A stretch of 47,890 nucleotides of DNA from Pseudomonadales bacterium (GCA_021295875.1 JAGWBN010000005.1:2776-50665), one strand, 5' to 3'. Positions 6,163 to 26,157 are shown, numbered from the stretch's first letter. The notes: generated from the sequence alone by a model not told the origin. A program made the numbers and translations.

Positions 6163-7266
6163 TCACCCATCGGCGTGGTCTCCATCGAGGTTCTTCAGTT
6201 CCTCCGCCTGGTGTTCCTGGGTGAGCGGCCCGATCAGGTGGTCGAGACTGCCCGCGATGATCTCGTCGAGTTTGTACAACGTCAGTCCGATGCGGTGGTC
6301 GGTCACGCGGCTCTGGGGGAAGTTGTAGGTGCGGATCCGCTCCGAGCGGTCGCCGCTGCCCACCAGGGAGCGCCGGGTCTCGGACTGCTCGGCCTGCCGC
6401 TCGCTCCGCGCCTGACCGATGAGCCTGGCCTGCAAGAGACTCATCGCCCGGGCGCGGTTCTTGAGTTGGGAACGCTCGTCCTGGCACTCCACGACGATTC
6501 CGCTCGGCAGGTGGGTGAGACGCACGGCGGAGTCGGTCTTGTTGACGTGCTGGCCGCCGGCGCCGGAGGCGCGGAAGGTGTCCACCCGGATATCCGCCTT
6601 GTCGATGTCGAGTTCCTCAATGGCGTCCTGTTCCGGCAGCACCGCGACGGTGCAGGCCGAGGTGTGGATGCGGCCTTGGGACTCCGTCTCCGGCACCCGC
6701 TGCACGCGGTGGGCGCCGGACTCGAACTTGAGCCGGCTGTAGACGCCCTTGCCCTCGACGCGCGTGATGATCTCCTTGAAACCGCCGTGTTCCCCGGGGC
6801 GTTCGCTCAGGATCTCGACCCGCCAGCGTTCCTCCTCGGCATATCGCGCGTACATGCGGAACAGGTCGCCGGCGAACAGCGCCGCTTCGTCGCCGCCGGT
6901 GCCAGCACGGATCTCGAGGAACACGTTGCGCTCGTCGTTGGGATCCTTCGGAATCAGGAGCGTGCCGAGGTTCGCCTCCAGGGTGTGCAGGGTTGCGCGC
7001 AACTGCGCGGCGTCCTCGCGCGCCAGTTCGCGGATCGCCTGGTCGGCATCGGACTCGAGACTCTCGGCTTCGGCGAGGTCGGCGTTGGCCTTCTTGAGTT
7101 GCCGGTACGAGGCGATCACCGGCTCGAGTTCCGCGTACTCGCGGGACAGCGCGGCGAACCGTTCGCGATCCGTCGCCACCTCGGCGTCGGCAAGCAGCGC
7201 CGCGACCTCCTCCTGACGGTCGGCGAGGTCGGCAAGCTTGACGATCATGGAGGCGGACAAGGTCAT
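6163..7266 (-). CDS. prfA: peptide chain release factor 1
   Basis: GGQ motif ([21 protein letters not shown]). The N-terminus [20 protein letters not shown] aligns with E. coli RF1. Start set at ATG 7266 ([11 protein letters not shown]); ATG 7248 is an alternative. The 24-aa extension to 7338 is rejected. Confidence 0.9.
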
Positions 7267-7366
7267 TTGGCGTGGTGCAGGGGTACTCGAACCGGGTGCG
7301 GGGAGCGAGCCCCAAACGCTAAACTGGCGATCACGCAATCATACCAAAAGTCGGCCCAGAGGCCCC

Positions 7367-7945
7367 GTGTTGCCTGGCAATAGAGTTTCCAACTATCTGT
7401 TTTCAGGGCTGCTTTTGGCACTCCTGGTCGGTGGCTGCCGAACGCTGGATCCTTTGGACGCTGGTCTCGACGCAGACTTCCGGCTGCGCGGCAAGATCGG
7501 CGTGCGGGGCTTGGACGACGGCGACGGTGCCTTCTCGGCATCGTTCGACTGGGTGCAGGCGGGCGATGCCTACCGGATCGAGTTGTGGGGCCCGTTCGGA
7601 CAGGGCCGCGTGCGTCTTGTGGGCGACGCCTGGGGTGTGACCATCACCGACGCCCGCGGCAGGTCCGTGTCGGAACAGACGCCCGAGGTTCTGATGGAGC
7701 GCGAACTCGGCTGGTCTGCCCCGGTCGATGCGCTGCGCCATTGGGTGCGGGGAAGTCCAGCGCCCGGCCATGCGGTGACCGGGTCCGAACGGGAGGAGGG
7801 CGGTCGCCTTGCCCGGTTCGAACAGCGCGGCTGGGTGGTGGAGTTCACCCGCTGGCGGGATCACGGGGTCGGCGAGTTGCCCGGCAGGATTGTCGCCACT
7901 CAGCCGGGGCGTCGCGTCACGGTGGTGAGCAAAGAATGGCTGTAG
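7367..7945 (+). CDS. lolB: outer-membrane lipoprotein LolB
   Basis: Signal peptide plus lipobox (LLLALLVGGC). The body resembles LolB (FRLRGKIGVR ... FDWVQ ... YRIELWGPFGQ ... GWSAPVDALRHWVRG). It occupies the conserved position divergent from prfA. Start is GTG 7367, or TTG 7370. Confidence 0.8.
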   Translation: MLPGNRVSNYLFSGLLLALLVGGCRTLDPLDAGLDADFRLRGKIGVRGLDDGDGAFSASFDWVQAGDAYRIELWGPFGQGRVRLVGDAWGVTITDARGRSVSEQTPEVLMERELGWSAPVDALRHWVRGSPAPGHAVTGSEREEGGRLARFEQRGWVVEFTRWRDHGVGELPGRIVATQPGRRVTVVSKEWL

Positions 7946-20143: not shown

Positions 20144-20220
20144 TGGTAGCTGCGGTTGGACTCGAACCAACGACTCCAGCATTATGAATGCTGTGCTCTA
20201 ACCGACTGAGCTACGCAGCC
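20144..20220 (-). tRNA. tRNA-Met (anticodon CAU), elongator type
   Basis: 77-nt cloverleaf on the minus strand. Acceptor GGCTGCG/CGCAGCT (G1-U72); D-arm TAGCTCAGTCGGTTAGAGCA; anticodon stem CAGCA/TGCTG with loop TTCATAA; T-arm GTTGG-TTCGAGT-CCAAC; encoded CCA. The D and anticodon arms closely resemble E. coli metT. A lysidine-type tRNA-Ile2 cannot be strictly excluded. Confidence 0.88.
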
Positions 20221-20368: not shown

Positions 20369-21028
20369 ATGGCAGATCCTCGAATCATCACCGCCCGCCC
20401 GTCGTCGGCGATTGAAATCAACAAGGTGCTCAGAAACACCTACGCCTTGCTGGCGATGACGCTGTTGTGGAGCGCGGTCACGGCGACGGTGTCGATGGCC
20501 ATCGGCGTGCCGCACCTCGGGTTCTTCACTTTGCTGATCTTCTTCGGTCTGCTGTACGCCGTGCACAAGACGGCCAACAGCACATGGGGGCTGTTCTGGG
20601 TCTTCGCACTGACCGGCTTCCTCGGCTTCTCGCTGGCCCCGCTGCTCGGTTCGGTCTTGAGCCTCGCCGACGGCGGTGCCATCGTCGCCCAGTCGCTGGC
20701 CATCACCGCGGTGGCATTCCTCGGGCTGTCCATCTACACCGTGACGACGAAGCGCGACTTCAGCTTCCTGACCGGCTTCCTCGTGGTGGGCGTGATCGTC
20801 ATCGTCGCCTCCTGCGTGGTGTCGATCTTCTACTACTCCACGCTGTTCGCCCAGGTCATGGCGGGCATCGCCATCCTGTTTGGTGCCGCCTTGATCCTGT
20901 GGGAAACCAGCGCCGTGGTGCGTGGCGAGCAGACCAACTACATCACCGCCACCGTGGGCATCTACGTCGGCCTGTACAATATCTTCTCGTCCCTCCTGCT
21001 CCTCTTCGGCATCGGCGGCGACGATTAG
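20369..21028 (+). CDS. yccA: Bax inhibitor-1 / YccA family membrane protein
   Basis: 219 aa with 7 TM segments. Characteristic start (NKVLRNTYALLAMTLL) and end (GEQTNYITATVGIYVGLYNIFSSLLLLFG). Confidence 0.88.
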   Translation: MADPRIITARPSSAIEINKVLRNTYALLAMTLLWSAVTATVSMAIGVPHLGFFTLLIFFGLLYAVHKTANSTWGLFWVFALTGFLGFSLAPLLGSVLSLADGGAIVAQSLAITAVAFLGLSIYTVTTKRDFSFLTGFLVVGVIVIVASCVVSIFYYSTLFAQVMAGIAILFGAALILWETSAVVRGEQTNYITATVGIYVGLYNIFSSLLLLFGIGGDD

Positions 21029-21035
21029 CTGTAGA

Positions 21036-21226
21036 GAAGTTTCGCGAAGCGAAACTTCCAACGCGCCCGAAGGGCGCGCGCTGGCAGAGAGGCCCCGTGC
21101 CGAAGTTTCGCGAAGCGAAACTGCCAACGCGCCCGAAGGGCGCGCGGCATCGGCGGCGACGACTAGAACTAGAGGCCGGTGCCGAAGTTTCGCGAAGCGA
21201 AACTTCCAACGCGCCCGAAGGGCGCG
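21036..21226. repeat. three tandem, same-orientation REP-like elements, each a pair of hairpins
   Basis: Each unit is GAAGTTTCGC-GAA-GCGAAACTTC, then CAA, then CGCGCCC-GAA-GGGCGCG. Copies lie at 21036-21078, 21102-21144 and 21184-21226. Copy 2 has one stem mismatch (ACTGC). They fill the gap between convergent yccA and the VWA gene. Confidence 0.85.
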
Positions 21227-21251
21227 CCGGCGGCGACGACAAGCCCCGCCA

Positions 21252-23231
21252 CTACGTGCGCGTGAGCTGTCGGTAGGCCTTGTGGAGGGCTTCGGGCAGT
21301 TCTGCGGTCTCCTCGATCACCAGGTATCGGTCCTCCGGACACATGCGCCGCAGGTAGTCGTGGCCTGACCGGTCAACGGTTACGCAGAACGTCTCGATCC
21401 CCCCTGCCTCGGCCTCGGCCAATGCCCGGGCGGTGTCCTGAACGCCGTATTCGTGCTCGCCCCGGTCGGGCCCGTAGTCGTGGTCCTGGGGGAAGCCGTC
21501 GCTGACGATCATCAGCACCTTGAGCGCTGCGCCGCACGCTTCGAGTTTGGCGGTGGCGTGGCGCACCGCAGGACCCATGCGGGTCGAGCGCTTGGGTTTC
21601 ATCTCGGCGATGGCGTCGAGGACGCGGTCGTCCAAGGGGTCGTCGAATTCCTTGGCGACGAAGAACTCCACGCAGTCGCGGCCATAGCCGGAGAAACCGT
21701 ACACCGCGTATCGGTCGCCCAGGCCTTCCAGCGCGGTGCCGAGCAGCAGGGCCGACTCGCGAAGGATGTCGATGATGCGCCTCTTCTTCGCCTCCTCGGC
21801 CATCCGCGCCGCAAAGTCGTATTCCTCATCCTCGTCGAAGAACGGATCTCTGATGTCCTGCACCTTCGTCGGCTTCGCAGGCAACGATTCCGCGCTAGCA
21901 TCGGGGAGGAGGTCGTCGGTGGATGCCGAGAGGTCGATCAGGAGCGCGGCACCGACGTCCCGGCGCAGCCGCTCCCGGCGGCTGTAGACCCGTTCGTCGG
22001 GGGACGTGCCGTTCTTGATGTCGGTGCGGGCCGCGACGATGGCCTCCAGATCTAGCTCGTCGCCGTCAGGCGTATTCTTGACCCGTTGGTAGCCGATGGG
22101 GCGAATCTGCTCGAACTGGCGGCGCGCCGCGCGGACATGGGGGCGCACGGCATCGAGCAGCTTCGCCGTGCCGCTGGCGCCCGGCGCATGCAGGCGTTCC
22201 TCGTAGAGCCGGCACCAGGCGCGCAGGTAGACGCCGTTGTGATGGTCCCACTCGTCGTAGCGAAAGCTGGCCACATCGCCGCGGTCGTCGCCGAGCGCGC
22301 GGCGGACCGACGAGCGCTCCATGTCGATCCGGCGTTTCAGGCGGTCCCGCTCGGCGACGAGATCGATGTCCACTTCGCGCAACTCGCCGTCGTCGCCTGC
22401 ACCGTCGCCGGCCTTGACCTCCTCGCCGGCGGTCAACTCCGAGAACTCCATGGCCTCGATCTCCCCGTCCAAGTCGGCGAGTTCCTGGTCCCAGTCGTCG
22501 AGGCGCACCTCCCTCTGCAGCCAGCCCGTCGTGTCGTCGTCCGTGGCGCCAAAACCGTGCGATGCGTTGACGGCATCGAGATCGAGGGCGTCGAGGCAGG
22601 CCACGGTGGCGTTCGCGGAGGTGTAGACGTCCGCGTCCGGCGACAACACGTCGACCGCGAGGGGGAACAGGCGCGACGTCAAGTCGAGGCCGAGCAAGGC
22701 GCCGTGCAGCATCGCGACCTCCGCCGTCGTTCCCGAAGGCGAGAGGCGCGCTTGCCAGTGCGCCTCGAGGTGCCGCCGCAGGGCGTCGCGGTAGCGACCG
22801 GTTCCCGGATATCGGCGTGCCACCGCGGCTTGTATCCGGGCGACCTCGATAACGCGGAACAGGATCCGGGCGAGGGTGGGGTTCGGCAAACAGTGGAAGA
22901 ACAAGGTGAGATCGGATTCGCGCAAACCGAGGGCGCTTGATTCCCGGACCGGCAATCCGGGCACCCGCCGGCGCGCCGTCTCCAAGTCGAATCGGTAGGT
23001 GCCGAACTCGCGGAATCCCAACTCGTCGAGGACGGCTAGGCGGTAGACGGCGGCGTTGAGGGACTCGTCGGCGAAGTGCTCGATCGCGTCCGGCAGGTAC
23101 ACGCTGCGGCTGTCGTGCCGGGCATCGACACCGTCGCCCGTGACGACGGGTTCGGTCTCGCCCGGAAACTCCGTCGTCGACTTGATGTGAACGACCCGGC
23201 CGGCGATGCCCTCGGCGAACAGCGCCAGCAC
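21252..23231 (-). CDS. VWA-domain protein of the CbbO / NorD family
   Basis: 659 aa. The C-terminal von Willebrand A domain has a complete MIDAS (LLIDLSASTDD, KRSTRMG, MIVSDGFPQD). It lies immediately downstream of a CbbQ/NorQ ATPase gene. Confidence 0.85.
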   Translation of the reverse strand: MLALFAEGIAGRVVHIKSTTEFPGETEPVVTGDGVDARHDSRSVYLPDAIEHFADESLNAAVYRLAVLDELGFREFGTYRFDLETARRRVPGLPVRESSALGLRESDLTLFFHCLPNPTLARILFRVIEVARIQAAVARRYPGTGRYRDALRRHLEAHWQARLSPSGTTAEVAMLHGALLGLDLTSRLFPLAVDVLSPDADVYTSANATVACLDALDLDAVNASHGFGATDDDTTGWLQREVRLDDWDQELADLDGEIEAMEFSELTAGEEVKAGDGAGDDGELREVDIDLVAERDRLKRRIDMERSSVRRALGDDRGDVASFRYDEWDHHNGVYLRAWCRLYEERLHAPGASGTAKLLDAVRPHVRAARRQFEQIRPIGYQRVKNTPDGDELDLEAIVAARTDIKNGTSPDERVYSRRERLRRDVGAALLIDLSASTDDLLPDASAESLPAKPTKVQDIRDPFFDEDEEYDFAARMAEEAKKRRIIDILRESALLLGTALEGLGDRYAVYGFSGYGRDCVEFFVAKEFDDPLDDRVLDAIAEMKPKRSTRMGPAVRHATAKLEACGAALKVLMIVSDGFPQDHDYGPDRGEHEYGVQDTARALAEAEAGGIETFCVTVDRSGHDYLRRMCPEDRYLVIEETAELPEALHKAYRQLTRT

Positions 23232-23254
23232 GCGGTCGATGTCGGCGAGTGCGG

Positions 23255-24094
23255 TCAGGGCCAGACGACGTCGACGATGCCGGCGACGGCCTCCTGCACG
23301 TGGGCGTCGTCGGACACCGCCTCGACGATGGCGATCTCGGCGGCACGGCGGGGTTCGATGCCGCGTTGGATGAGCTCCCCGGCATAGATCAGCAGCCGCG
23401 TACTGACGCCCTCCCGGAAACCGTGTTCGCGAAGATTGCGCACCTTGGCGCCGGTCACCGCCAGGCGATGGGCGAGGCCGCTCGCGACGCCGCTCTCGTG
23501 GGCGATGATCTCGGCTTCGCGGGGCTCGTCCGGATAGTCGAAGGTAAGGCTCACGAAGCGTTGCCGGGTGCTGGTCTTCAAGTCCTTGAGAATGCTCTGG
23601 TAGCCGGGGTTGTAGGAGATGACGAGCAGGAAGTCGGCGTGGGCGTGGACCAGTTCGCCGGTCTTGTCGATGGGCAGCGCGCGGCGGTGGTCGGTGAGCG
23701 AGTGGATGAGCACCGTGGTGTCCTTGCGCGCTTCGACGATCTCGTCCAGGTAGCAGAGCGACCCCCCGCGCACCGCCTGGGTCAGGGGACCGTCCTGCCA
23801 GATCGTCTCATCGCCCTTCAAGAGATAGCGGCCGACGAGGTCGGTGCCGGTCAGGTCTTCGTGACAGGAGACGGTCACCAGGTGGTCGTCGATGTCGCCC
23901 CTGCCGAAAAGCCGCCAGGTCATGTGCTCCACGAAACGCGTCTTGCCGCACCCCGTGGGACCCTTCAGCAGCACCGGCAAACGACTGGCGTAGGCGGCCT
24001 CGAACTCCGCCACCTCGTCGGCCAGCGGCAGGTAGTAGGGTTCTCGGCCATCCGGGCGTGACCGGTCGAGCAACCCCTCGGATGGGGCTTCCAC
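23255..24094 (-). CDS. MoxR-class AAA+ ATPase of the CbbQ / NirQ / NorQ / GvpN family
   Basis: Walker [12 protein letters not shown], Walker [12 protein letters not shown], and family-typical blocks [16 protein letters not shown] and [11 protein letters not shown]...[11 protein letters not shown]. The GTG start lies 1 nt after the upstream stop. Confidence 0.9.
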
Positions 24095-24095
24095 G

Positions 24096-24953
24096 TTACG
24101 GCACGAAGACGTCGTGGCCCTGGGTGTAGTTCCTGAACGACTGCGCCGGGTTGCGGTTGACCAGGTTGCGTTTGAACATCGGGTGATGAAGGCTGCGTAC
24201 CTCGTGCTCGATCTCGGTCAGGCGTTCGCCGCTCGATGGATCGACGATGTCCTGGAAACGGTACTGGTGCTGGTCCGACTCCTCGGTGATGAGGCCCCGT
24301 TCTTCGAGGGCGGCGTGAGGTCCGGAGAAGTTCGCCACGTAGATGGCGAGGTGGTGGCCGTCGTAGTCGGGAATCTCGTCGTCGGTCTCCTTGAAGATCA
24401 GCCGCTGGTTGGCGCCCATGGTGACTTCGGCGCGTTTGCCGCCGTCATCGTCGCGGGTGGCGGCCGGGGTCTCGAGAAGGTCGTTGTAGAACCGGGTAAT
24501 GCCATCCGCCGTGTCGCGAGGTACGTCGAGGGATGCGAAAGGAATGCCCAGGCTGGTGCCGAATCCCGGCCCGTAGGCGCGGATGTCGTTGCCCCACGGG
24601 CAGCGCAGCGCGATGTGGTCGTTCTTCTCTTCGCGCGAGAATTCGGTGCCCTGCATGGGGCGGTCGATGAAGTCGAGGCGGCGTTTCAGGTCGTCGAGGT
24701 CGGGAACCACCACGCCGATGTGACCGCGGAACTTCTGCGCGTCGCGCTTGGGCAGGTGGAACTGCTGCTCGCCGACGTTGATCCACATGTTGAACGTGCC
24801 GAAGTCGATGAACGGGTCGCGGGTGAAGCCCAGGCCGCTCACGTAGAAGAGCGCCGCCACCTGCTGGTCCGGCACGGTCAGGTTGATGTGTTCCATGTTG
24901 AGGACGTTGCCGAAGTCCTCTTCGGTTCGGTCGAACGCCCGCTTGTGGCTCAT
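24096..24953 (-). CDS. two-module VOC (glyoxalase/extradiol dioxygenase-like) superfamily protein, specific function unknown
   Basis: About 285 aa from [12 protein letters not shown]. Two beta-alpha-beta-beta-beta-like modules start at [10 protein letters not shown] and [11 protein letters not shown], with a late acidic/His block ([12 protein letters not shown]). The 57-aa upstream extension in the ORF track is rejected. Confidence 0.65.
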
Positions 24954-25065
24954 GCTGTCTCCCGTCGGATCCCACCCAGTCCGATTGCATAGAATAACCC
25001 CGATCAACCCCGTGTGTTCCGCTGCGCTGGACCGACCACGCGCCGGCCTTCGCCTGGACGAAAAC

Positions 25066-26157
25066 GTGCCCGACGACAACGAAGCCCTGCTGGATGCGAT
25101 CAGCGCCGTGGTGCCGCCGGTCATGACCGCCCTCGATGCGCTGGCCTGGGTCGGCCGACACCTGCATCCGCCGAACCTGTCGGCGTTGGTGGATGCGGTC
25201 GCCGGTGCCGACGAACCGGTCCGCGAGGGCCTCGAGCGGTTCCGCGCGACGGCGTTCCCCGAACACCTCCAACCCTTCGCGGAGCATGTCCTGCGTACCG
25301 GCGAGCACGTCCTCAGGGCCCTCGAGGGACTTGCCGAGGCGGCTCGCGATTCCGACGGCGCGATGTCGGCCTACCGGGCCATGGGCAACCACACCCGGGC
25401 CCTGGAAGCGCTGTACCCCGTTGCCGCGATGCTGGGGCCGGTGAGCCGATTCTTCGTCGAACCCCAACGTCGCGACGATTCCCTCCTGCTGAAGCGCCTG
25501 GCGGATGCGGATCCGACGCGGGAAGACGTGGGAGTGATCCACGCGAACAACGACAAGGGCTCGAGAGGCGGTTTTTCGCTGTACGTTCCCGAATACTACG
25601 ACCCGGATCACGCCCATCCGTTGATCGTCGCCCTGCACGGCGGCTCGGGCCACGGCCGCGACTTTCTCACGACCTGGCTGGTCAATGCCCGTACCCATGG
25701 TGCCATCCTGCTCTGCCCCACGGCCCGCGAGCGGACCTGGTCGCTCATGGGGACGGACGTCGACACGCCGAACATCGAGAACCTGGTGCGGCACCTGCGC
25801 GATCAATACAACATCGACCCCGAGCGGTTGCTGCTCACCGGAATGAGCGACGGCGGCACGTTCTGCTACGTATCGGGACTGCGCGAGGACTCGCCGTTCA
25901 CGCACCTGGCGCCCAGTTCGGCCAGTTTCCACCCGCTGCTGTTGGAAGGGACCACCCCCAAGCGTCTGGGTTCGTTGTCGGTCTATCTCATGCACGGCGT
26001 CCTCGACTGGATGTTTCCGGTCGGAATCGCGCGCACGGCCAACGAGGCGCTATCGGCGGGCGGTGCCCGCGTGACGTATCGCGAGATCGACGATCTCTCG
26101 CATGCGTATCCCCGGGACGAGAACCCGAGGATCATGGAGTGGCTGATTGGTCCGTAG
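25066..26157 (+). CDS. alpha/beta-hydrolase esterase (phospholipase/carboxylesterase or PHB-depolymerase-type) with an N-terminal helical extension
   Basis: LIVALHGGSGHG, nucleophile elbow GMSDGG, and late DDLSHAY. The start is uncertain: GTG 25066 is chosen, GTG 25012 is possible, and ATG 24883 would overlap the divergent gene by 70 nt. Confidence 0.75.
   Translation: MPDDNEALLDAISAVVPPVMTALDALAWVGRHLHPPNLSALVDAVAGADEPVREGLERFRATAFPEHLQPFAEHVLRTGEHVLRALEGLAEAARDSDGAMSAYRAMGNHTRALEALYPVAAMLGPVSRFFVEPQRRDDSLLLKRLADADPTREDVGVIHANNDKGSRGGFSLYVPEYYDPDHAHPLIVALHGGSGHGRDFLTTWLVNARTHGAILLCPTARERTWSLMGTDVDTPNIENLVRHLRDQYNIDPERLLLTGMSDGGTFCYVSGLREDSPFTHLAPSSASFHPLLLEGTTPKRLGSLSVYLMHGVLDWMFPVGIARTANEALSAGGARVTYREIDDLSHAYPRDENPRIMEWLIGP

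Follow-up and report, generated by a model that had tools for sequence, protein, structure and literature searches.

Layout of the VOC-Q-O locus

We analyzed a 47,890-nt stretch of DNA from a Pseudomonadales bacterium (GCA_021295875.1 JAGWBN010000005.1:2776-50665; hereafter the window), in which three genes at positions 21,252-24,953 of the minus strand encode a VOC-fold protein (VOC), a CbbQ/NorQ-class MoxR AAA+ ATPase (Q) and a NorD/CbbO-like VWA protein (O). The open reading frames (ORFs) follow one another in the order VOC, Q, O with near-zero spacing. The boundaries of this tight unit given in an initial annotation, including the single nucleotide between the VOC stop codon (TAA) and the GTG of the Q gene, are confirmed in the window sequence. 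Coordinates of genes, motifs and other features are collected in Table 1.

For the O gene, the initial annotation had proposed a start at GTG 23231, leaving a gap of 23 nt to Q. This GTG is indeed the first canonical start codon of the VWA ORF, but the nine codons 5' of it are conserved as protein across related loci, where they open with a GTG, ATG or TTG overlapping the ATPase stop codon. The equivalent codon in the window and its closest relatives is CTG (CTGA, overlapping the TGA of the ATPase gene). Based on the conservation of the upstream codons and the overlapping starts at other loci, the O gene probably begins at CTG 23258, with a 4-nt overlap with the Q gene.

Table 1. Features of the VOC-Q-O locus, with positions counted along the window.
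Feature	Position	Strand	Remarks
VOC-fold gene	24953..24096	minus	285 aa; ATG with GGGAGA ahead; N-terminus agrees with homologues
VOC His22 codon	24888-24890		predicted metal site
VOC His201 codon	24351-24353		predicted metal site
VOC Glu251 codon	24201-24203		predicted metal site
Q gene, CbbQ/NorQ-class MoxR AAA+ ATPase	24094..23255	minus	279 aa; start GTG
Q Walker A, GPTGCGKT	23939-23962	minus	residues 45-52; read in sequence
Q helix-2-insert (H2i) motif	23804-23833	minus	read in sequence
Q Walker B, CYLDE	23741-23755	minus	residues 114-118; read in sequence
O gene, NorD/CbbO-like VWA protein	23258..21252	minus	668 aa from CTG (probable); 659 aa from GTG 23231
O MIDAS DLSAS	21921-21935	minus	D433-S437; aligned to NorD
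O MIDAS T550 (RSTRMG)	21582-21584	minus	aligned to NorD
O MIDAS D578 (SDGFPQD)	21498-21500	minus	aligned to NorD
Divergent intergenic region between VOC and alpha/beta-hydrolase genes	24954..25122		hydrolase start taken from tblastn alignment lengths
52-nt repeat, three copies	21028..21227		just 3' of the VWA stop codon; copies 88-100% identical

Conservation of the gene order in Ca. Azotimanducaceae

A scan of GTDB (one genome per species) with a VOC profile returned 186 relatives. The best 80 of these, which were examined for linkage, are all metagenome-assembled genomes (MAGs) of Pseudomonadales / Ca. Azotimanducaceae, a marine/soil gammaproteobacterial family. VOC, Q and O occur in this order in 76 of the 80 species-level genomes (tblastn); among the four exceptions, the contig is truncated in three, and in the other (L014) VOC is followed by mutS. 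The window locus is 97% identical to a Pseudomonadales MAG chromosome (L001), and the lowest identities to the window across the loci are 60% for VOC, 68% for Q and 34-42% for O.

Spacing within the triad is short throughout. The VOC-Q gap has a median of -1 nt and is ≤30 nt in 65 of the 76 loci, with -4 overlaps being frequent; the median Q-O gap is 12 nt, and overlaps are frequent at this junction as well (start-codon choice in these figures leans to short gaps). The frequent -4 overlaps imply translational coupling. The triad is also kept where its flanks have changed: 18 loci are without the hydrolase neighbor found in the window, 10 are without the Bax1-I gene and 4 have neither. Four loci of one subclade (L032, L036, L039, L042; e.g., L032 9873-12815) have three genes between Q and O, encoding an acetoacetate-decarboxylase (ADC)-like protein, an SDR protein and an Amidohydro_2 metal-dependent hydrolase or decarboxylase, which suggests that the operon is part of a catabolic pathway. 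Judged by gene order and spacing across these genomes, VOC-Q-O is a real, conserved three-gene operon specific to Ca. Azotimanducaceae.

The ATPase represents a separate branch of the CbbQ/NorQ family

Q contains the Pfam domains AAA_5 (PF07728, 5e-29) and CbbQ_C (PF08406, 7e-27) and matches solved chains of the family at 1e-98 to 3e-87, among them CbbQ 6l1q (1e-98), CbbQ 5c3c (5e-97) and NorQ 9qh4 (2e-92). Its H2i motif corresponds to the GRxLL/IxxxxT of NorQ, which binds the finger of the VWA protein (PMC13036017). The Walker A and B motifs of Q and the full MIDAS of O are intact, as had been read initially, and together with H2i show conservation of at least 95% across 72-76 relatives. The domain pair and these motifs place Q in the CbbQ/GvpN/NorQ (CGN) subfamily of MoxR AAA+ ATPases by sequence. 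Against the GvpN equivalog TIGR02640 it scores 53.7 bits, below the cut-off of 266.8. A defense system of the MoxR/VWA type was considered and rejected; the sole PADLOC match was a weak generic AAA match to RtcR, and the locus is not a defense locus.

The neighbor-joining tree of Q was built with solved and annotated references, a small set in which the NorQ group comprises 4 sequences. VOC-linked Q sequences are recovered as monophyletic (100% bootstrap) and fall outside the CbbQ (88%), amidase-linked (66%) and NorQ (70%) groups. Closest to them is an orphan Q from a soil metagenome contig (L105; 58% bootstrap, 64% identity), and the window Q shares 55-62% identity with every reference.

The VWA protein has an unrelated N-terminal region

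O has a weak Pfam VWA match at its C-terminus, and residues ~293-657 match NorD (9qh6_G) at 1e-35, MIDAS residues included. The protein consists of a variable N-terminal region of ~320 aa, a finger region (residues ~320-440) and the VWA domain with the MIDAS. The finger and VWA half is 27-30% identical to NorD, CbbO and amidase-linked O proteins alike, and 36% identical to the O of a Miltoncostaea plasmid. The N-terminal ~320 aa have no similarity to NorD, CbbO or amidase-linked O, and are the least conserved part of the protein within the clade; the first 83 aa are similar to a hypothetical protein that Miltoncostaea encodes separately, with its gene placed between Q and O. Directly after DxSxS, O carries an acidic insert of ~45 residues (…DPFFDEDEEYDF…; residues ~441-483, 21780-21920) that is absent from the aligned NorD and is conserved in the clade at its DP core only.

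The Miltoncostaea cluster (L166; Miltoncostaea oceani plasmid NZ_CP064358.1, 5959-9669) encodes Q, a 362-aa hypothetical protein and a 548-aa VWA protein, the latter two of which look, from their sequences, like a split O protein. It adjoins genes for a thiamine diphosphate (ThDP) enzyme, a thiolase and an OB-fold protein, which also neighbor VOC homologues elsewhere (L171). A 118-aa hypothetical protein upstream of the Miltoncostaea Q was considered as a mini-VOC and rejected, as it has no Pfam match.

The lead gene encodes a candidate metal-dependent VOC enzyme

The VOC protein matches the Pfam family Glyoxalase (PF00903) with an E value of 1.4e-4, above cut-off. A profile search of PDB sequences gave no significant match to any solved VOC; methylmalonyl-CoA epimerase (MCEE) was found sub-threshold only, with His22 and His201 aligned to its metal-binding histidines. 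An AlphaFold2 model based on 71 diverse sequences has a pLDDT of 93.7 and a pTM of 0.90 (an earlier alignment of 15 sequences of ≥70% identity gave a pLDDT of 58 and was discarded), and shows four beta-alpha-beta-beta-beta modules plus an extended, conserved C-terminal tail. The best Foldseek matches of the model are VOC structures at a TM score of 0.55-0.58, 12-14% identity and a probability of 1.00, and include the B. cereus glyoxalase-family metalloprotein 1zsw, human GLOD4, PcpA (4huz; 14% identity, TM 0.56), B. subtilis 3oaj and maize glyoxalase I. The alignment to classical type I extradiol dioxygenases is poor, with a TM of about 0.3.

Residues H22, N59, Q64, H66, H201, E249, H250, E251, R253 and H257 are among those invariant in the family (71 sequences; 28 distant representatives). 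The Fe(II) ligands of PcpA are His11, His227 and Glu276 (PMC3204407), and H22, H201 and E251 of the model occupy the equivalent module positions. The initial reading of the lead gene as a two-module VOC protein with a His/His/Glu site is thus borne out by the fold in the AlphaFold2 and Foldseek analyses and by the invariance of the triad at the positions proposed. The model confirms a predicted two-domain VOC fold of the GLOD4/PcpA kind and marks the protein as a candidate Fe(II)/divalent-metal enzyme, with a predicted site at His22/His201/Glu251.

By sequence, the family is separate from solved VOCs, and its members are named only "hypothetical" or "VOC family protein" in the sources. Membership in the PcpA/hydroquinone ring-cleaving dioxygenases was rejected, given 14% identity and no significant sequence match; the likeness is one of architecture alone. 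Six clade-specific residues (D50, F51, Q63, K69, A203, F273) were considered as a possible MIDAS-docking site and were rejected as a signature of linkage to Q/O because D50-F51 also occurs in P0122, the representative of an unlinked Acidimicrobiales clade.

VOC homologues in other lineages

The family comprises 1351 clusters at 50% identity (E≤1e-3), 201 of them with E≤1e-30. A metagenome scan seeded with the clade of 46-55% identity yielded 80 loci, with at least 1 kb of downstream sequence in 55 and at least 3 kb in 34. One soil contig among them (VFSW01011686.1, the L105 locus) has an orphan CbbQ-type gene (6826-7722, minus) 3.4 kb from the VOC homologue and on the other strand, located between cysS and a beta-eliminating lyase gene, with no VWA gene in 9.4 kb of the 12.3-kb contig. 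This could be a second association or could have arisen by chance, for which the rough expectation over 80 loci is about 0.15. Q/O is absent from the nearest outgroup of the lineage, an Acidimicrobiales clade of 55% identity, and is likewise absent beside VOC in a SAR324 locus and the P0281 locus. No match to the VOC protein was found on plasmids (tblastn).

Gene neighborhoods give some indication of the chemistry of these homologues. Acidimicrobiales VOC genes neighbor those for a Rieske oxygenase alpha subunit, acyl-CoA dehydrogenase (ACAD)-fold enzymes, ThDP enzymes and luciferase-like monooxygenases, and in the soil clade the genes that recur beside VOC encode Acyl-CoA_dh_2 proteins, TctC binding proteins, luciferase-like monooxygenases and glutathione S-transferases. 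A second Pseudomonadales clade and the P0362 clade, which are unrelated lineages, have an overlapping Abhydrolase_1 gene directly 3' of VOC (L081-L083, 7833-8762; L173, 6882-7775). A ring-cleavage dioxygenase with a meta-cleavage-product hydrolase is a classic gene pairing. The ACAD-fold monooxygenases, Rieske oxygenase and overlapping alpha/beta-hydrolases thus point to ring-cleavage-type chemistry. From the fold, the invariant triad and the catabolic neighbors of homologues, we infer that an Fe(II)-dependent ring-cleaving or related oxygenase is most likely. VOC would then be a soluble non-heme Fe(II) 2-His-1-carboxylate oxygenase of oxidative catabolism with a PcpA/GLOD4-like architecture.

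Genomic surroundings of the operon

The window is ordinary chromosomal DNA of a gammaproteobacterium (65% GC) and includes genes for prfA, prmC, L25, pth, ychF, a LIV-type ABC transporter, AcrB/HlyD efflux, ppx and various oxidoreductases. As the initial annotation had noted, cbb, nor, nir and gvp genes are absent from Pfam scans of the coding-like ORFs in the 48-kb window; this absence is strong, though not absolute, since a few ORFs have no Pfam match. Searches by tblastn agree with it, giving no match to norC, norB, amiE, cbbL or cbbS in the window or within 8 kb in any of the 80 related loci. Adjacency of nor or cbb genes in close relatives, which would mean a local rearrangement, is thus not seen at any of these loci.

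Upstream of VOC and divergent from it is an alpha/beta-hydrolase gene (~25123-26157, ~360 aa; Abhydrolase_2/DLH-like) whose product is extended at its N-terminus by roughly 150-230 aa that match no Pfam family. It is a different alpha/beta-hydrolase from the Abhydrolase_1 that overlaps VOC homologues in the two lineages above. The operon promoter is presumably located in the intergenic region between the two genes; no sigma-70 consensus was recognized there, and a promoter scan of the operon gave no promoter-like site. The corresponding terminator scan gave a single terminator-like site, inside the VWA gene, which is below chance expectation and uninformative. The 52-nt repeats lie between the VWA gene and the convergent Bax1-I gene, with two GC-rich palindromes, GAAGTTTCGCGAAGCGAAACTTC and GCGCCCGAAGGGCGC, in every copy. 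For the 23-nt core of the palindrome, 5 matches were found, all within the repeat array and none elsewhere in the window (0 expected by chance). The repeats are likely REP-like elements or stacked terminator hairpins closing the operon. A tRNA gene (20147-20220, minus; RF00005, 70.7 bits), the sole match of an Rfam scan, lies between a periplasmic binding protein gene and Bax1-I.

Other genomic contexts of Q/O pairs

A tblastn search of plasmids with Q returned 258 records, of which examples were inspected. These include norC-norB-Q-D, cbbL-cbbS-Q, and carboxysome genes followed by Q-O. Three others (L167, Roseibium aggregatum plasmid; L168, Shinella sumterensis; L169, Brucella anthropi) encode, in order, a urea/amide-type ABC transporter, an aliphatic amidase, Q and a VWA protein of ~740 aa. 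The partners enumerated in the initial annotation were therefore not complete, lacking the aliphatic amidase found before Q and VWA on these alphaproteobacterial plasmids, and non-canonical genomic partners of Q/O are not unprecedented. To our knowledge, the amidase-linked Q/VWA pairs are annotated and have not been characterized; a cluster of this kind is reportedly listed in a 2026 paper. In each of these clusters, the enzyme gene is directly 5' of Q, which favors taking the gene at that position as that of the client.

VOC as a putative client of the Q/O pair

The known clients of CbbQ/NorQ-type remodelers are few: RuBisCO, the cytochrome c-dependent NO reductase (cNOR) and possibly cd1 nitrite reductase and gas vesicles. 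The explanation that we favor, at about even odds, is that VOC is the client of a dedicated, distinct CbbQ/NorQ-VWA branch encoded in the layout client, AAA+, VWA. The gene order supports this reading, since it matches norCB-Q-D, cbbLS-Q-O and amiE-Q-O. The separate Q clade, together with an O protein equidistant from NorD, CbbO and amidase-linked O and unrelated to them at its N-terminus, is what would be expected if the partner had adapted to a different client. More tentatively, the Q/O pair may be dedicated to a soluble VOC oxygenase of the 2-His-1-carboxylate type, serving it as an ATP-driven metal loader or reactivase. We infer the client role, the identity of the metal and the loading or reactivating function by comparison with known pairs; whether the pair loads metal into VOC or reactivates it is pure conjecture.

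The steps that we propose are based on the cryo-EM model of NorQD (PMC13036017). By this analogy, the finger of O would be inserted in the pore formed by the Q hexamer, with the C-terminus of O bound to the post-sensor-1 loops of Q, and O would dock on VOC via the MIDAS and its variable N-terminal domain or linker. ATP-driven rotation or hydrolysis may then pry VOC open. In the opened protein the active-site metal could be inserted or replaced, as for NorQD; alternatively, a dead-end oxidized or inhibitor-bound state of VOC could be released, as for CbbQO.

Several observations weigh against a client role for VOC. The co-occurrence of VOC with Q/O across genomes that had been anticipated holds within one family (76 of 80 genomes) and does not extend beyond it: none of about 90 contexts outside the lineage has a VWA partner, including all 80 metagenomic loci of the clade of 46-55% identity (0/80), and neither Q nor O is found in the 8 loci of six further VOC proteins from Acidimicrobiales, SAR324 and other lineages (0/8). 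Even within the family, L014 carries VOC with no Q/O nearby. Since VOC elsewhere mostly stands without Q/O, the enzyme does not intrinsically need a remodeler, and with the linkage confined to one lineage, the idea of a new client rests on lineage-restricted gene linkage only. All linked genomes being from one family, much of the conservation could also be synteny inherited from a single fusion event. With an insert between Q and O in four loci, the operon evidently accepts other cargo. VOC does not stand out in mirror-tree correlations, because all genes are correlated by shared phylogeny (VOC-Q, r = 0.82; hydrolase with Q and O, r = 0.86-0.87, with 0.87 for Q-hydrolase). The lack of universal linkage weakens the client idea and does not refute it, because most RuBisCOs likewise have no CbbQO.

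Alternative explanations

Q and O may instead serve a protein encoded elsewhere (e.g., a respiratory enzyme or metalloenzyme), with the VOC linkage reflecting inherited synteny and co-regulation after an unrelated VOC gene had been joined to the pair in the ancestor of the family. We regard such a remote client as unlikely, yet as an explanation to be taken seriously. It is favored by the origin of all 76 linked loci in a single family, by VOC homologues that function without Q/O in other lineages, and by the orphan Q without O in the soil contig and the insertion of genes within the operon. Some denitrifiers also have Q genes apart from partners, e.g., nirQ next to nirS. On the other hand, the presumed client lies directly 5' of Q in every characterized or annotated case examined, the triad remains intact through rearrangement of both flanks, and its stop/start overlaps argue for stoichiometric co-translation. 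The client-facing N-terminal domain of O is unlike that of NorD or CbbO, and known clients are absent within 8 kb in 80 genomes.

It is improbable that VOC is an accessory, i.e., a third subunit of the machine that supplies or buffers metal, or removes a reactive by-product, for another target. In its favor, the Fe donor for NorQD is unknown (PMC13036017), and VOC is always first in the operon and better conserved than O. Against this, homologues stand alone as enzymes in catabolic contexts elsewhere, and the invariant residues beyond the triad (H66, R253, H257, Q64, N59) suggest a substrate pocket over a simple metal carrier. We also know of no VOC metallochaperone.

Similarly low in probability is the idea that another neighbor is the client, either the divergent alpha/beta-hydrolase or the Amidohydro_2 metalloenzyme inserted between Q and O. 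The hydrolase adjoins the triad in 54 of 76 loci, and the mirror-tree values above show its distances tracking those of Q and O; but it is encoded on the opposite strand, and the other 22 of the 76 loci do not have it nearby, whereas VOC is present in all. The Amidohydro_2 family is metal-dependent, and a member of it lies inside the operon in 4 loci; this insert is limited to one subclade.

A displaced norQD or cbbQO, parted from nor or cbb genes by local rearrangement, is very improbable and largely refuted: the family assignment is strong, with Q sharing 55-60% identity with NorQ and CbbQ and O resembling NorD in its C-terminal half, but Q is not nested in either group and forms its own clade (100% bootstrap), O is 27-30% identical to NorD/CbbO with an unrelated N-terminal domain, and nor and cbb genes are absent from the vicinity of the pair in all 80 genomes, which cover deep divergence.

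Implications of a VOC client

The operon is unreported, and VOC is a plausible new client for a known class of remodelers, with Q and O lineages of its own. We found no publication joining CbbQ/NorQ-type pairs with a VOC, glyoxalase or dioxygenase, in line with the initial suggestion that such a client class is undescribed. If VOC is the client, it would be the first small, soluble non-heme-iron enzyme served by this remodeler class and, taken with the amidase-linked pairs, would point to "client, Q, O" as a general, portable module maintaining fragile active sites. A 32-kDa soluble client with a confidently predicted fold would be far more tractable than the membrane-bound cNOR or the 550-kDa RuBisCO, and would aid the study of MIDAS docking, force transmission by the finger in the pore, and metal delivery. 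Fe(II) centers of ring-cleavage enzymes such as extradiol dioxygenases are prone to oxidation, the known answer so far being the XylT ferredoxin, and the Q/O pair would be an ATP-dependent answer to this inactivation. A comparison of Q/O-linked with stand-alone VOC orthologues would then serve as a natural experiment on the reasons for which a remodeler is needed in some lineages. If VOC is not the client, the operon would represent an uncharacterized VOC gene co-transcribed with an orphan remodeler of another client.

Comparison with known systems

NorQ and NorD carry out FeB insertion into the cytochrome c-dependent NO reductase (PDB 9qh4-9qhg; PMC9976466, PMC13036017). The pair in the window resembles NorQD in its ATPase (AAA_5 and CbbQ_C domains, H2i GRxLLxxxxT; Q 55-59% identical), in its VWA protein (finger, DxSxS-T-D MIDAS, conserved C-terminus; C-terminal half of O, residues ~320-657, 28-29% identical) and in the order of client, Q and D. 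The job proposed for it, loading of a non-heme iron site, would also be the same. It differs in that norCB is absent from the window and the candidate client is a small soluble VOC rather than a membrane-bound relative of heme-copper oxidases. In addition, the NorQ group does not include Q, O has an unrelated N-terminal region of ~320 aa, and a ~45-aa acidic insert follows DxSxS.

CbbQ/CbbO is a RuBisCO activase (PDB 6l1q, 5c3c; PMC4660213). CbbQ is the best sequence match to the window Q (1e-98, about 60% identity), and CbbQO, like the pair in the window as proposed, joins a hexameric MoxR-type ATPase to a single VWA adaptor. CbbQO acts on a soluble enzyme encoded upstream, and reactivates an inhibited active site rather than assembling it. 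In contrast to CbbQO loci, the window contains no cbbL, cbbS or cbbM and Q lies outside the CbbQ group; CbbO is about 786 aa long compared with 659 aa for O, and the 30% identity between them (Nitrobacter CbbO) is restricted to the VWA half.

The amidase-linked pairs share with the operon a non-RuBisCO, non-NOR enzyme gene placed directly before those for the CbbQ-family ATPase and its VWA protein, with Q sequences 59-62% identical to that of the window. Unlike the candidate client here, their amidase belongs to the nitrilase superfamily and is no metalloenzyme; their O is about 740 aa long, and their Q group is sister to CbbQ rather than to the VOC-linked clade.

The VOC protein itself is comparable to PcpA, GLOD4 and two-domain glyoxalase I (4huz, 3zi1, 5d7z, 1zsw), which likewise have four modules (TM 0.55-0.58); modules 1 and 4 make their metal site, and the His/His/Glu triad of VOC lies at equivalent module positions. 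Identity to these is 12-14%, and the family has invariants of its own (H66, R253, H257, NMWxNxGxQQFHLP).

XylT is a [2Fe-2S] ferredoxin that reactivates extradiol dioxygenases by reducing Fe(III). The resemblance to XylT is conceptual, in that a dedicated helper for an oxidation-prone Fe(II) ring-cleavage enzyme is encoded in the operon of that enzyme, but the helper proposed here would be an ATP-driven AAA+/VWA remodeler rather than a ferredoxin.

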